DNA of 64,000 nucleotides from Pseudovirgaria hyperparasitica (taxonomy: Eukaryota). Below are positions 18,375 to 24,729 of this stretch, piece by piece. Below the pieces are notes generated by a model. The model worked only from the letters and a program-made list of their open reading frames with translations. It ran no database searches and was not told the origin of the DNA. The stretch's first letter is position 1; the number at the start of each line of letters is the position of its first letter. The stretch lies in NCBI GenBank assembly GCA_010093815.1, contig ML996574.1; one strand, 5' to 3'. The position numbers and the translations under genes are program-made.

Positions 18375-19160
18375 TTAGGACCCGTCTCCATCTGACTTCG
18401 TCGGCCTGACATAGCCCTTCAAAGTCACAATCCCCTCCCCATCATCCTGCAACCACTCCCCCTGCTTCCCCTCCGGCTCCCAAAGCATCGCATGCGCCGG
18501 CTGCAACTCGACCCCCTCAACATTCAAGACCTCGAAAGTCTTAAACCCAGCCTTCCAATACAACTTCTTCGCCGTCGGCGCCGCCTCCAACGTAACCGGC
18601 ACGCCCTCATCCCTCGCCGTCTCCATGCCCCAGTCCAAAAGCCTAGTACCAACATTTCGACGCTGCGCAGCAGGATGTACAGCAATGACATTAAGATGCC
18701 AGTACGCCTCCAGCGAATCATAAATCGTCAACACCATGACATGCGCATAGAACCGCCGCACACGATCCCAATCCGTCGCATAGTCCATCACAGTTTCCTG
18801 ATACCACTTCTCCCAGCCCAGCGCCCAGCGTTCAAACTTCCAGGCCAGCCGATCCCGCGTCCATTTCACCTGCACGGCATCCGAGGGGTCCTTGGAGCGT
18901 CTATTCCAGGTTGCGAAACCGATGAGTTCGCCTGGGACAAGGCCCGAGTCGGTGGCCTCGGCGACGGCGACCATGACGACGTTGCCGGGGATGAGCAGGG
19001 CTGTTTTGGCACGGATCTTCATGGCGCGCGAGAGATCGTATGGGTGCTTGTCGAGCTGCGGGCAGAGCCAGTTGTTGAGTTCGTCGTGGCGGAAGGCGGC
19101 GAATTGGACGTCTGCCATGGAGGGTGCGTCTGCGGGAGTGGCGGGGCGGATTAGGACCAT
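18375..19160 (-). CDS. GNAT-family N-acetyltransferase
   Basis: 261 aa: IRPATPAD at the N-terminus, acetyl-CoA motif A (IAVHPAAQRRNVGTRLL) and motif B (LEAAPTAKKLYWKAGF). Confidence 0.92.
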   Translation of the reverse strand: MVLIRPATPADAPSMADVQFAAFRHDELNNWLCPQLDKHPYDLSRAMKIRAKTALLIPGNVVMVAVAEATDSGLVPGELIGFATWNRRSKDPSDAVQVKWTRDRLAWKFERWALGWEKWYQETVMDYATDWDRVRRFYAHVMVLTIYDSLEAYWHLNVIAVHPAAQRRNVGTRLLDWGMETARDEGVPVTLEAAPTAKKLYWKAGFKTFEVLNVEGVELQPAHAMLWEPEGKQGEWLQDDGEGIVTLKGYVRPTKSDGDGS

Positions 19161-19563
19161 TTTTTGATATACTGAGAGAGAGATTCTGGGGTGAGGAACG
19201 TGTAGAGTGTGGATGGTCGGGTGAGAGTGGTGAGATGTGCTATATATTTTGTATCCTGGTGCCTAGCGTAAGCGTGCTACGCCCTAGGGCGTGGTGGTGG
19301 TTGCGAAGTGAGTATATGTCGCAGGGCGTTCTGCTGGCCGATCAATGAGGTCCGAGCTCCGTGGTGTTGTTGTGTTTGGGGGCGGATATTGGCTGGGACG
19401 TATTTAAGGTTTAGATAAACAGCATACGAACACCGTAAGGAGGGCAGAAGGTTTATGATACTGTCTCTGGATATACTGGTTTGGGGCTTCTATGCCCATA
19501 TAGATCCGCAACTGTAGCCTCATCTCATTACCTTAAGATATAGTCCACATGTCCTACTATGAA

Positions 19564-22520
19564 TTATGCACTCCATAGCCCACTAATCGTCTCGACAGCC
19601 CTCTCGACAACAGCCTTGACCCTATCCCTCAACACCCTGTTGTTCTCGCACTCGACCTCCAAGTCTTCCAGCCAGACCTTTGCAACGCTCTTATCCACTT
19701 TGATCTCGATGCCGGGCACGGGGATTCCAAGCCCGTGCAGTCTTGCCAGCTCCTTTTGCTCCGCCGCCGAAAACTCTTCCGTCTCATCTCCATCATCGTC
19801 ACCATGCTCTGTCACATCCGAGCCTGGCGTTGCCGGCGCCTTGAGCTTAGGATGTGTCAGCGGCGTGATGCCCGACCCGAATTGAGCCTCCATGAACATG
19901 AACAGCCGGTCGAAGCGTTCTTGTGGGGTGGCTGTAGCGTGAGGGTTCCGCTTGCCATGGGTATGCCCATGGCCATGGCCATGTCCATGCGCGCCTTTTG
20001 AGCTCTGCTTGACTGCCGCCGGGGAGCTTTCGACGGTATATAGCACTGCCAGCACGGCGTCAGCAATACCGTCGTTGACCATGTTGCCTTCCCACTCGAC
20101 CTCGATGCGGCCGTTCTGTTGGCAATGTAGTTTCACGCAGTCCATGACCTCAAAGGTGGTGATGCTGCGGTCGACATCCTCATCTGCGTGCTCGTAATCA
20201 CCGTTCGTATCGGCGGATTTCCCGTTGATTGCGGCATCGGGCGCAGAGAGCTCTTTGATCGCGCCAAATGTGCCTTCGAGCGCCCAGCGGATGAGATCGA
20301 GGCCGGCGGTGCTGAGCTGCAAGTGCTGCCGGCAGGTGATGGTAGTGGTGGTTAGGCCGGCATATTCTCGCAGGTCTTCGGGCGCCATCAGGCTCATCTT
20401 AAAGTCGTTCTGAACAAGCACACCCGTGATGAGTTGGGATTGCGGAATGTCGGGCGCGGAGCCGTTCAGATCTTTGTTGCGAAAGGCGAGTGGGGGAGGA
20501 ATCTGGGCGAGTTTACCGACGACTTTGGCGATCTTGTCTGTCTTGAACGGAATCCGTAATTCTTCGCAGTTCGGCGGCGAGAAAACTTTGACGGGTTGTG
20601 CTTTGTCGGCGTTGAGTGAGAGGAGTTTGGATTTGAGGCGCATCATATTGTGTTTCTCTCCATGAACCAGGATCTGTATGCGCGTTAGTTAGTGCCGACT
20701 TGGAGAGCGGTTCCACTTCAACTTACGACTACGGGCGCTGCTACACCCTCGATGAATTCGCGATTTTCTGTTCCGTCAACGTGTGCCGCAAAGCTGTACT
20801 CTTTTACTTCGCATCGACGAGGAATCATAATCTGTTCTTGTGCTCCTGGCACTCTTCGCTGTGTTGCTGCCGTGTTCCTCGTCATAACTGCGTGTATCTG
20901 TTCCGGCTCTTGCATGATCATCTTGGCCATTGTTCCCTCGACTGAATAACCTGTTATGATGACTCCGTTCTTCTGATCTGGCGCCCAGCGCTCCAATAGC
21001 TCTCTCGACACACCGTTCTGCATGAAACCTGGAGACGCAAGCATAACACATGCACCGACATCATCGAATCGCTCCAAGCTCTTGAGACTGCGCACAAATC
21101 GGAAATCCCAAGGCCCTCGTTTGCCAACATCACCGGCTGCTTCGGCTTCAGCCATGCGTTCGCGGAAGAGCCGTTTAATGTTGTCGTTCATAGCAGACAC
21201 ATAGGTCTGGTATACCACCATACACTTCCTGGCCAGATTGGACGCGTAGTAGATGGGGATTTTCTGGAACTCGGCGTGCTTGCCCCAGTACTCATCGAGA
21301 ATGAGCAGCAGCTCTTGCGCCCGGCCAAGGGCAAACACCGGAAGAAGTGCTCGCCCGCCACGATTCAGAATGTTGGTGATGGACTTCATCAGTCCAGCCT
21401 CGCGCTCCAAGCGCGGTATATGTGATGCAATGCCGTATGTGCTCTCCGTGATCAATACGTCAATCTTGACGTTCTTTGGGACCTCTGCTGAGATCAAGTG
21501 ACGGTCTTCTTCGCGGGAATAGTCTCCAGTAAACAGGATCTTGAGGCCGGCAATCTCGATGAGGAACATGGCAGCGCCGAGCACGTGGCCGGCTGGATAT
21601 GGCGTTATGCGGATGGATGAGATGGTATGTGTTGTGTAATAGTCGATTGCTTCGATCATGGGAAAGGTAGTGAGATGGTCGGCTTCAGTGTACAGCTGAA
21701 TCTTTTGCTCTGCAGAGGAGGATATGTTCCTGATCCCGCGTCAACAGGTTCCATGCGAGAACAGCTTCACTACACGAACTTACCCTACCCGTACGCTGTC
21801 TTGTACGAGCCATTTATAAATAGCTTTGGTTGGATGGGTCATGAACACTCGTCCTTTGAAGTTTGTCTTTGACAGAACATACGGTAAGGAGGCGGCATGG
21901 TCGATATGGAAACTGTCGTCACACACGTTAGCTTGCAGTTGCGATGACTTCTAGTAATGTACGAGATGAAGAGTTCTATGTACATGGGAAGCTCGCAAGA
22001 AGCAGGAAGCAAGTCACAGTCATTTCCATAAGCGCAAATGAGGCTCGATGATGTAAAATTCTTTCATTGATATCTCATTTACATGACAGGACTGGTGCCA
22101 TAACAGATGGTACAGGGGCAAAGATGGAAATGTCAAGGCTCCACGGTAATATGTGCGCTGATTGAACGGTTTGGTCCGATTCTCATGGGAATGTGTCTGA
22201 GTAGCTCTGTTCCAAGCCCGGATGTGTGATGCTACGTTCTATGCAAAAGGTACGAGGGCGAGGACTTACTGGCTTATCAGTAGTACATCGACGGTACTGA
22301 GATCGAACTCGTCATAGAACGGCATCGCGGCCAACCCATCATAAGCAGGATGCATTCCCGCATCAAGCATCACGGTCTTGCCCTTGTACTGTATGATATG
22401 ACACGACCGCCCGACCTCGTTACCTCCTCCTAGGTTCAGAAACATGAGCTCATCTGCTGGATCAACAGGCTCTTCGTCTTCTGGCGCTGCTAGAGCCGCT
22501 AACTTCCGCTTCGTCGCCAT
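19564..22520 (-). CDS. YSH1: Pre-mRNA 3'-end processing endonuclease Ysh1/CPSF73
   Basis: Exons 22520-22270, 21912-21784, 21729-20727 and 20673-19564. Motifs [23 protein letters not shown] (split by intron 1), [37 protein letters not shown]. Confidence 0.97.
21913..22269 (-). ncRNA. Candidate structured cis-regulatory RNA in YSH1 intron 1
   Basis: 357-nt intron (other introns here are about 46-130 nt) with nested complementary segments 22132-22124/22029-22021 (9 bp), 22080-22074/22042-22036 (7 bp, extendable with G-U pairs) and 22016-22011/21950-21945. Confidence 0.5.
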
Positions 22521-23107
22521 GATGCAAGCAAGGTATGTCGAAGAGGATGGTGTGTATTTTTACTGTGGTCGGCCGGTATCGCGGTAAGGAGAGGCTTAAG
22601 GTCAAGCGCAGGCTCTGTAGTTGCAGGCGCAAGAGGCCTATATACAGGCTTCTGTCGACACTTCTGTGTCATACAACGGTCGCATGTAGACTTGAATGCT
22701 GTGTTTCTGAGCGGAAGATGGTTGTGGTTGTCGAGCAGAACGTGGTGATGCATCCATAGAGAGTGAACGCGACTGTAGGTGCTCGCGTCGTGGTTGAGAG
22801 TGAGACCGGCGAAAAGTTTCGCGAGCTCCGGACTGGTTGCAGGCTTGCGCATCGCGTCGTCCAAGTCGTACATGATTCACTGCTCGGGCGAATACCGACC
22901 ACCACAATACCTAAAGCCCGCCATATCGTCTGCACAGCGTTACCCTCACCTGGTCAATAGAAGTCTTCACTTTGCCTATGAGTGTAAGACAAACAACAAG
23001 AGCCTCCTGCGGCTGAAGCCGGAGGTCCCATTCAGCGCGGCCTTGAGCAACTCCACCCACGCCTCCATTCACACTGCAACCTCGACTGCTCTACCCACCT
23101 TGCTATC

Positions 23108-24729
23108 ATGGCGCAACAAATGTCACCTCCGCCTGCGATGCTCGCACACCAACCGCAACAGCCTCGTGTTTCATTCTCTCCGATGCCTGCGCAATCGCCG
23201 CCCGCGCCGCCTGGGTCGATGGGACCTCCACAACGACCCGCTGATCGTGCTGGTGGTGGAACTCGGGGGAAGGCGACTGATATTAACGACTTGAGTGATG
23301 CCGTCACCGCTGCTGGGATCGATGTTGCGAACGAGGAAAGCTATCTGAATGAGATCTACCACAACCGGCAAGGCACTGCGTCGTTCTCTACGTCATTTAA
23401 CTCGCAAACGTCTTCCACCATATCCCCCGACACCAGCTTCGGTGCATGGACTCAAGGTGGATCGGGTGCATTTCAAGGCTCAGGCCCAACCAGTCAACCT
23501 GCAAAATCACCAGAAGACGTAGAGAAGGAATTTCTGGAAAAGAAAAGACGCGCGGCCGAGATACTGGGCGAACAGCGTTCACATCATCTCAACGACCCTT
23601 TCTTGCTGGGGAACTGTGTCCAACGAAGAATACGGCGAAAAGCATACGACCACGGAGTCAAAATCAACCTTGATGGGCTTTTTGAGAAGATTTCTGAAGA
23701 GCAACCCTCGCGAGGGGTACAGGCCACCATGCATTCGAACGGTTCTGATGTCAACGGTATCGTCGCTGTAAAAGCTCACAGTCTTCTGAATGATAACACC
23801 CCATTGGTAGACATTCTTACTCTTGTCTCGTTGGCGACTCAGGAGCGCCTTCGAGGTTTATTAGAGGAAGCTCATGGCATAGCGCGAAATCGACAGTTGA
23901 CCTCTCACGGAATCGTTCCACCAGAGTTTGCATCTTTGGCGGTTGGCACTGGCAAGCCACGAGACACATCGGTGTCCCCGCAATTACTTTCTGGAACAGC
24001 GTGGGACCAGCCTCCTAGCGCTGCGAGTCCCACGGCTAACCCCCTCAAACGTAAGTTGACTCTCGTCCTTCACTTATGTCATCCTCTAATCAAGGCTCAG
24101 GGCCTCATCAAAACTCTGCAAGCCTCCCGACTCCTCCCAATGACAGTCCTTCAACCCCGCAGAAGACAATAGTCTTTCCAAACTCTCTCATCGACTCTCT
24201 ACGTTTGATCGCCAAGAATGACCGCAAATACGAAGAAGAGCGACTCGCAAAGCGCGCAAAGCGTAGGAAGCTTGCAAAGCCCGCCGATGGTACAAGTTCT
24301 CCAACTGTCGCCGAAGCTACCGCCGTAGCAGATGCCGTAGCCATCAACACGAAGCTTACGAAGAAGGAGCGCGACAAACTAGCAAAGTCCAATCAGACAG
24401 AAGAGGTCCTTCACCGAGAAGCGAACAAGACTGCGAGCCTCGCCATGGGTGGTATGGGAAAGAAGTATTCATGGATGTCAGGAGGTGCGAAAGGTGGAAG
24501 TGGAGCCAATACACCCAAAGTCAACACCGCCGTTCCTCGCCCTGGTTCAGCAAAACCTGCAGAGAAGGGCGTGCAAGGAAGAAATCGCGCATATGGAGAT
24601 TTCCGCGAAGACAGAGACAGAGGAATACAGATGAGAGACCTGCTGGCAGTGCTGGAGGCAGATGGAAGAGAGAGGAGGGCGGTAGTGAGAGGCTACACGA
24701 CACGGATGAAAGGATCCAATACCGCATAA
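23108..24729 (+). CDS. TAF4: TFIID subunit TAF4
   Basis: Exons 23108-24050 and 24101-24729. DINDLSDAVTAAGIDVANEE, DPFL, LVSLATQERLRGLLE (histone fold), HREANKTASLAMGG..KKYSWM, GIQMRDLLAVLE. Confidence 0.88.

Follow-up and report, generated by a model that had tools for sequence, protein, structure and literature searches.

The YSH1 gene and its long first intron

The window analyzed here, a 64,000-nucleotide (nt) stretch of contig ML996574.1 from Pseudovirgaria hyperparasitica, carries on its minus strand (19564..22520) the coding region of YSH1/CPSF73, whose unusually long first intron is the subject of this report. Ysh1/CPSF73 is the 3'-end endonuclease. The gene model and its translation gave four exons (22520-22270, 21912-21784, 21729-20727 and 20673-19564) and a product of 830 amino acids, which matched the Pfam families Beta-Casp (7.2e-29), CPSF73-100_C (1.3e-78) and Lactamase_B_6 (2.4e-08) and whose full-length named relatives include Neurospora crassa ysh-1. 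The host gene of the intron thus encodes a core cleavage and polyadenylation factor, Ysh1/CPSF73.

Intron 1 (21913..22269, minus strand) is a phase 2 GT..AG intron of 357 nt, while introns 2 and 3 of the same gene measure 54 and 53 nt. It splits the codon for the first His of the metal-binding motif S-H-F-H-I-D-H (HxHxDH) after the second base, such that exon 1 ends in ..AGC CA and exon 2 starts with T TTC CAT ATC GAC CAT. An earlier note on this DNA, made from the sequence alone, had pointed to the length of this intron relative to the others and to its position within the motif (SH|FHIDH), and the exon borders and intron lengths bore out both observations. The minus-strand splicing signals comprise a strong, consensus 5' splice site, GUAAGU (22264..22269), and a branch-point consensus, GCUAAC (21927..21932), which lies 12 nt upstream of the 3' splice site, CAG (21913-21915). 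Reading through from exon 1 into the intron yields ..ISQ and a stop after 84 codons (open reading frame 22266..22520), as the earlier note had also stated, although the Q-stop arises automatically because CA|GTAAGT is read in this phase. The same Q-stop ends at least 90% of 66 aligned exon-1 fragments from other fungi.

Evidence for splicing came from public sequencing runs. Four runs (X1-X4, from two studies) contain the stretch; none is recorded as RNA, and X3 and X4 represent a single sample from a single study. The DNA contigs of X1 and X2 are continuous across all of the YSH1 introns. The contigs of X3 and X4 skip all three of them (21912 to 22270, 357 nt; 21728 to 21783, 54 nt; 20673 to 20727, 53 nt), and these runs therefore behave as transcript assemblies. 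The transcript-like YSH1 contig covers 19467-22757, and because the X3 and X4 contigs bridge every splice joint, they confirm the gene model and the exact removal of the 357-nt intron. No X3 or X4 contig covered the interior of intron 1 or had a loose end there, and no transcript terminating within it was observed, but contigs of this kind drop rare forms and are blind to RNA ends, and they are therefore silent on a truncated isoform.

Taken alone, this sequence showed no intron 1 feature that exceeds chance. The earlier note had described the intron as structured, citing four stems, three UGUA sequences beginning at 22114, 22083 and 21984, and an AAUGAA at 22068-22063. All of these coordinates were correct; the claim of structure did not hold, and the stems and UGUA count were at the level expected by chance. 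The minimum free energy of the intron was -81.8 kcal/mol (z = -0.53), and 29 of 100 shuffled sequences were equally or more stable. The longest uninterrupted stem was 10 bp compared with a shuffle mean of 10.0, a length reached in 60% of 60 shuffles, and three UGUA sequences were observed where 1.36 were expected (P = 0.14).

Conservation of intron 1 and of a central module

A search with exon 1 only, limited to proteins of 45-146 amino acids, returned 973 fragments, most of which terminate in ..LLI[ST]Q-stop. Because such fragments end at this site in many genera (the named sources include Sordaria, Lachnellula, Glarea, Apiospora, Phyllosticta, Aspergillus tanneri, Exophiala, Fonsecaea, Friedmanniomyces and Elasticomyces), the intron has a wide distribution at this position in Pezizomycotina. 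Through an alignment of 66 exon-1 fragments, 80 metagenome loci (L001-L080) were then reached, and 72 of them contain both exon borders. An intron of 241-506 nt (median 317) was found in 61 of these 72, at exactly CA|GT..AG|Y; eight others have no intron at the site, and the last three have introns of 49, 62 and 152 nt. Five further contigs stop 213-361 nt into intron 1. The 5' splice site is GUAAGU, GUAAGC or GUGAGU in most loci. Assignments of the loci to named fungi are weak, with 57-93% identity to the nearest named exon-1 protein over 60-130 residues; the nearest for the window is from Sordaria sp. (87%), and L071 lies closest to Friedmanniomyces (93%).

Other introns of YSH1 in the 61 loci are short, at 45-66 nt within exon 1 (43 loci) and 49-53 nt for intron 2 (19 loci). 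The intron content around the long intron appears to vary while the long intron persists, because 43 of the 61 loci have an extra intron in exon 1 that the window does not have (e.g. L008:3001-3300) and 11 of the 30 loci in which it could be measured have no intron 2. To judge from these comparisons, the length of intron 1 is under constraint, and its 5-6-fold excess at a single codon is not the result of drift. An ordinary intron that is long by chance and serves no function would be consistent with the lack of any above-chance signal in the single sequence, but not with 61 of 72 loci keeping an intron 5-6 times longer than its neighbors, nor with the shared module described below, which is absent elsewhere in 451 kb. 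Given the orthologue comparison, we consider the absence of a function very unlikely.

Several loci depart from the common arrangement. Those without an intron at the His codon are L062, L065, L066, L067, L068, L073, L076 and L077, and those with a short intron are L069, L080 and L078; some in these two groups are still 81-88% identical to the window over exon-1 residues 20-83. In L022 (214-1768), unrelated sequence takes over from exon 1 precisely at the position of the 5' splice site (..CA|) and runs on into a lysine-rich coding region; this contig may be chimeric, rearranged or derived from a transcript. Contigs L014, L021 and L074, which end inside the intron, were considered as possible RNA ends and rejected as genomic instead: they still carry either the intron within exon 1 or a long stretch of upstream DNA, and none has a poly(A) end.

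Similarity of the window's intron to the other introns is confined to offsets 184-313. From words shared among the introns, we reconstructed a module consisting of a block A, a U-rich run followed by CA, a block B and a block C, all on the minus strand. Block A (22061..22083) contains a UGUA-type element, UGUAAAUGAGA, followed by an A-rich element, AUAUCAAUGAAAG, that includes the AAUGAA at 22068-22063; its consensus is CAUGUAUACGAGAAUCAAUACAA, and the window has UGUAAAUGAGAUAUCAAUGAAAG at 22083-22061. The U-rich run and CA dinucleotides follow at 22047..22060 (AAUUUUACAUCAUC), with predicted cleavage positions at C22053|A22052 and C22050|A22049. Block B (22009..22029, AUGGAAAUGACUGUGACUUGC) is GU-rich and contains GUGAC, which across relatives takes the form GUGAY, with GTGA invariant or nearly so in alignment A2 (13 sequences of the window's clade); this segment is also the 3' arm of the outer stem drawn in the earlier note. 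Block C (21976..21984, UGUACAUAG) begins 87 nt after the start of the A-rich element. The exact sequence UGUACAUAG is present in 12 of 54 unique long introns, TGTA..T is invariant in A2, and the spacing from the A-rich element of block A to block C is 64-92 nt. Thus, two of the three UGUA sequences that had drawn attention, those beginning at 22083 and 21984, lie together with AAUGAA in the conserved module; the third, at 22111..22114, lies outside blocks A-C and outside offsets 184-313 and is not conserved.

An nhmmer profile of block A, with the window as one of its 16 seed sequences, matched the window at 22061..22083 (E = 0.0015) and nowhere else on either strand of the 64 kb. When both strands of 451,282 bases were searched, 30 of the 31 matches with E < 0.2 fell in intron 1 in the sense orientation, and the remaining one was in L024, downstream of exon 1 on a contig that stops before exon 2. 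Identity in five subgroup alignments was 0.79-1.00 in the module windows compared with intron means of 0.55-0.89, and conservation of the module equaled or exceeded that of the splice sites. The module occupies a central position, 105-276 nt from the 5' splice site (median 160) and 105-230 nt from the 3' splice site (median 155); in the window it lies 186 nt into the intron, with 171 nt from the anchor to the 3' end. On this comparative evidence, the module is the most conserved part of the intron and is strand-specific.

RNA structure and hosted RNAs as possible explanations

We examined whether the length of the intron might be explained by RNA structure, either a long-range "zipper" stem drawing the two splice sites close to each other or a hosted noncoding RNA such as a snoRNA-like molecule. 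Over the 54 unique long introns, z-scores for minimum free energy (20 shuffles each) had a mean of -0.33 and a median of -0.48, and 7 of 54 were below -2. RNAalifold analysis of A2 gave only seven pairs, with a consensus energy of -0.82 kcal/mol and no compensatory changes, and this 7-bp consensus pairing joins two palindrome-like UGUA words. The 11 more diverse sequences of the other clade (A3), whose alignment was too poor, gave -0.21 kcal/mol. Aligning the orthologous introns, as the earlier note had proposed, therefore revealed a conserved sequence module and no covariation-backed fold in the window's clade.

A different picture emerged from a subgroup of the orthologues, in which the flanks of the module are strongly complementary. 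The duplex z-score was below -2 in 12 of 42 introns and below -3 in 8 of 42 (L009, L011, L012, L013, L020, L034, L042 and L071), whereas that of the window was +0.19. A seven-sequence subgroup folded into a consensus structure of -42.2 kcal/mol that includes a 19-pair stem bracketing the module; 8 of its 58 pairs were kept through double-sided changes, but the covariation term, +1.96, amounted to a penalty. In this respect, the subgroup resembles the yeast "zipper stems" (PMC12350175), which likewise involve long-range pairing. CATGG words were enriched on both strands (26 of 44 introns sense and 21 of 44 antisense, versus 9.6 in shuffles), lie in the 5' halves of introns such as those of L012, L016, L038 and L071, and are absent from the window's intron; they are probably the paired arms of long-range stems specific to particular lineages. 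To judge from predicted pairing, some lineages carry a long-range stem around the module, and the lineage of the window does not. The intron is mostly not a structured RNA in general, and structure is not its common denominator.

Searches against known RNA families did not favor a hosted RNA. With Rfam 15, there were no gathering-score matches in the window, none with E <= 10 in 21700-22500 and none in 20 orthologous loci, and the snoRNA families in particular had no match on either strand of these sequences. A published "ysh1" intronic RNA motif, which the earlier note had mentioned, was not found in Rfam 15 or in two papers on fungal introns: the word ysh1 does not occur in the available portions of Li and Breaker 2017 or of Gao, Jones and Rivas 2021 (PMC8216456). 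According to the latter, in the portions available, a covariation screen of Neurospora crassa and Aspergillus fumigatus introns yielded 17 structures, none of them in ysh1. As with the motifs described in those two papers, the YSH1 module is a conserved noncoding element within fungal introns; unlike them, as far as those portions describe them, it has neither a covariation-backed fold in the window's clade nor an Rfam family. A snoRNA that would account for the length of the intron, the explanation that the earlier note had named as fatal to its proposal, was thus not found, and the characteristic boxes were absent or not conserved. On balance, and despite the bracketing stems of the subgroup, we regard RNA structure or a hosted RNA as an improbable explanation of the conserved intron.

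Specific candidates of this kind were tried and rejected. For an H/ACA snoRNA (H = AUACAA, ACA = ACAUAG), neither the flanking hairpins nor the H box is conserved; the candidate H box in the window is AUGAAA rather than AUACAA, and judged by eye it varies outside ANANNA. A C/D snoRNA was rejected for the window's intron, which contains neither CUGA nor UGAUGA. A nested intron or poison exon with its 3' splice site at block C (..UAG) would depend on candidate 5' sites (GUAUAC, GUACAU and GUAAAU) that, by eye, have no G at +5, and the remainder following block C, counted by hand, would be in frame only in some introns (63 nt in the window; 59, 73, 70 and 80 nt in L060, L052, L054 and L008, respectively). 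A conserved small open reading frame starting at the CAUGG words was likewise rejected: the lengths, by eye, differ (11, 24 and 42 codons in L009, L012 and L011), and CATGG occurs on both strands.

Proposed premature 3'-end formation within intron 1

The base composition around the module was profiled in 42 non-redundant introns anchored on the UGUA-type element (background A 0.23, U 0.28). From +6 to +23, A made up 44-54% and G 8-22%; U reached 52% from +24 to +29, C reached 35-38% from +30 to +41, and U rose again to 38-42% from +42 to +53. The A-rich part of this profile is partly built into the choice of anchor, while the U-rich and C-rich parts are not. Poly(A) sites of Neurospora crassa, as described in the available part of the source, are A-rich from -30 to -10 and U-rich from -10 to 0 and are cut between C and A, with AAUGAA as the commonest hexamer, AAUAAA as the third and AAUCAA also in use (PMC5869017). 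The A-rich element of the module varies among similar words, being AAUGAA in the window and AAUCAA, AAUACA or AAUAAA in relatives. Hence the module shares with the fungal poly(A) signals described there the order of elements, the AAUGAA/AAUAAA/AAUCAA words, the U-rich run and a potential C/A cut, and the composition around it follows the published Neurospora order. Furthermore, the distance of block C from the predicted cut is approximately that of the motifs of fission yeast Seb1, which binds (A/U)GUA(A/G) at a distance of 50-100 nt on the downstream side of poly(A) sites and favors the use of these sites (PMC4949328); these Seb1 data are not from Pezizomycotina.

Altogether, because the long intron is conserved, its UGUA and AAUGAA words lie in the conserved stretch and the elements follow a poly(A)-like order, a switch based on intronic polyadenylation is the best reading available. 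We propose, tentatively and with somewhat less than even confidence, that intron 1 contains a conserved cleavage and polyadenylation site that competes with splicing and provides negative feedback on Ysh1. This proposal takes as its starting points the intron itself, its accurate splicing, the conservation of its length, position and module, the strand specificity of that module and the composition around it; to these it would add the use of the module as a poly(A) or termination signal, the position of the cut, the binding proteins and a dependence on the level of Ysh1. The earlier note had arrived at the same kind of switch. Its choice of place and of the most likely mechanism was right, agreeing with the conserved length and module and with the poly(A)-like order of elements; its claims of RNA structure and of a published motif were not borne out.

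According to this proposal, RNA polymerase II would first transcribe exon 1 and the strong 5' splice site, and the module would emerge about 105-276 nt into the intron (186 nt in the window), presenting in turn a UGUA- or UAYAUA-type upstream element, the A-rich element, the U-rich run, CA and the GU-rich block, with a second UGUACAUAG 64-92 nt further on in this clade. Because the branch point and 3' splice site would follow only after a further 105-230 nt (171 nt from the anchor in the window), the processing machinery would have a window of time before intron removal. If the machinery were abundant, it would cut near C22053/A22052 and transcription would end, leaving a short polyadenylated RNA with the 84-codon frame and without any catalytic motif; if it were scarce, splicing would win and full-length Ysh1 mRNA would be made. 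In its wider form, the idea is that the machinery of filamentous ascomycetes gauges how active it is by acting on the pre-mRNA for the nuclease it contains, by way of a module in the middle of a long intron, with the bracketing stem of some lineages tuning the race between cutting and splicing; we put this forward cautiously and rate it as a possibility short of even.

Annotated proteins offer a potential trace of short YSH1 products. Botrytis cinerea B05.10 has two proteins named Bcysh1, of 83 (ATZ48165.1) and 828 (ATZ48166.1) amino acids, and because they share a name and have neighboring accessions, we infer that they are isoforms of one gene. The 83-residue product needs a transcript that retains the start of intron 1. 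Exon 1 is also annotated as a separate protein of 83-84 amino acids in Sordaria sp., Lachnellula, Apiospora, Glarea, Fonsecaea and Botrytis (records P0001, P0011, P0018, P0021, P0082 and P0122), and these proteins reflect either gene models interrupted at the long intron or genuine short isoforms.

Several results weigh against intronic polyadenylation. We defined a motif pattern, framed after seeing the data, as UGUA or UAYAUA followed within 20 nt by AAUGAA, AAUAAA, AAUCAA or AAUACA. It occurred in 21 of 44 introns in the sense orientation and in 3 of 44 antisense, compared with a mean of 1.0 and a maximum of 4 in shuffles, but in just 1 of 36 genuine 3' flanks of YSH1 orthologues; its densities per kb were 1.63 in intron 1, 0.09 in the genuine 3' flanks and 0.05 in coding sequence. 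Because only that one flank matches, the pattern does not recognize the poly(A) signals of these fungi in general, and its enrichment mainly restates the conservation of one motif. The window's own YSH1 3' end, where transcript contigs end at 19467 and 19497, does not have the same clean order of elements. The splice signals that the cleavage site would have to compete with (GUAAGU, GCUAAC and CAG) are of consensus strength. The 83-residue Bcysh1 cannot separate retention of the intron from intronic polyadenylation. Moreover, the loci are metagenome contigs, many of them related, so the counts drawn from them are not independent events.

The conserved words (UGUAYAY-AGA-AUCAAU) raise a further objection, as they are more specific than the degenerate signals of Neurospora: unlike real fungal poly(A) signals, the module is a sharply conserved word, which would also fit a dedicated RNA-binding protein. 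Such a protein might decide whether intron 1 is spliced or retained, or what becomes of the unspliced RNA, with no cleavage inside the intron, and because retention gives a stop after 84 codons, it would still lower the output of Ysh1. Consistent with this, the words are strand-specific as well as sharply defined: the perfect PUF-type 8-mer UGUAHAUA was found in 17 of 44 introns compared with 0.6 expected from shuffles and 3 of 44 antisense. The near-universal stop directly after exon 1 also speaks for this reading, the 83-residue Bcysh1 suits retention as well as it suits polyadenylation, and the failure of the poly(A) motif pattern on genuine 3' flanks points in the same direction. However, the perfect 8-mer is missing from 27 of the 44 introns, and a bound protein would leave unexplained both why nearly all introns turn U-rich and then C-rich after the A-rich element and why at least 105 nt are kept on either side of the module. 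We therefore judge regulation by an RNA-binding protein without cleavage to be unlikely, though it deserves to be kept in view. With respect to the protein that might read UGUA, CFIm is one candidate among several, and Hrp1, Nrd1/Seb1-type and PUF proteins fit equally.

The module might also act in DNA, as an intronic enhancer or transcription-factor platform within a promoter-proximal intron that is long in order to house it. The conserved stretch lies in the first intron of the gene, some 450-700 bp away from where the transcript begins (22757 in the contig), and its primary sequence is conserved without covariation, as would be expected of a DNA element. On the other hand, the surroundings of the module are strand-asymmetric in the manner of RNA signals (A-rich, then U-rich, then C-rich), and two palindromic words of the UGUACA type lie at a fixed spacing of the kind seen in RNA elements; neither feature is itself a test of DNA binding. 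A function at the DNA level appears quite unlikely to us.

Precedents for an intronic polyadenylation switch come from animal genes for 3'-end factors, as described in the available parts of the sources cited here. The poly(A) site in intron 3 of CstF-77 (human CSTF3, Drosophila su(f)) is conserved and lies in an unusually long intron; the short transcripts yield no useful product, and use of the site rises with the activity of the machinery, providing negative feedback (PMC3708835, PMC7614891). Common to CstF-77 and YSH1 are a host gene for a core 3'-end factor and a conserved element in an unusually long intron. The two differ in that the CstF-77 case is animal and its intron spans many kb, whereas the YSH1 intron is 241-506 nt, is found in filamentous fungi and lies in the gene for the endonuclease itself, where feedback is only proposed. 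A further difference speaks against equating them: the CstF-77 intron has a weak 5' splice site (PMC3708835), while YSH1 intron 1 has a consensus GUAAGU. PCF11, through a poly(A) site in its intron 1, and RBBP6 also have their own levels set by early polyadenylation (PMC7614891, PMC6428223, PMC6458999); unlike YSH1, these are vertebrate genes and encode different subunits. The passage of the review that deals with self-regulating factors does not name CPSF73/Ysh1 among them (PMC7614891). Homeostasis of the 3'-end machinery is thus known from these sources for CstF-77, PCF11 and RBBP6 in animals, and not for the nuclease or in fungi. No paper on an intron element of YSH1/CPSF73 or on its self-regulation in fungi was found in a literature search that left most subscription journals and supplements outside its reach.

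If intronic polyadenylation is confirmed as the function of the module, YSH1 would provide the first case of an intronic poly(A) site through which CPSF73/Ysh1 regulates itself, and the first in fungi to be deeply conserved, and this function would account for the retention of an intron of 5-6 times the usual length at one codon of a housekeeping gene across a wide fungal span. It would also provide a compact and genetically tractable model of the race between splicing and polyadenylation, within an intron of 250-500 nt, and a strong, natural poly(A)/termination module in fungi for which such signals are otherwise ill defined. If this reading is wrong, the module would remain a conserved noncoding element in need of an explanation. 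On the practical side, several genome annotations call exon 1 a separate protein of 83-84 amino acids.

Finally, some minor features of the locus were noted. The 3' untranslated region of YSH1 contains GGUAAUGAGAU (19520-19535, minus strand), about 50-65 nt upstream of the transcript contig ends (19467 and 19497), which resembles GUAAAUGAGAU of block A (22073-22083, minus strand); this likeness may be due to chance or to a shared signal. A His-Gly run of 14 residues is encoded at 19960-20005 (minus strand) in the C-terminal half of Ysh1. In the same runs, transcripts adjoin YSH1 at 18800-19297 and 22910-23400. The first of these neighboring contigs has its end at 19275-19297, approximately 170-220 nt from the YSH1 3' end, and the other starts at 22910, approximately 150 nt from the start of the YSH1 contig at 22757, which suggests a short divergent promoter region.

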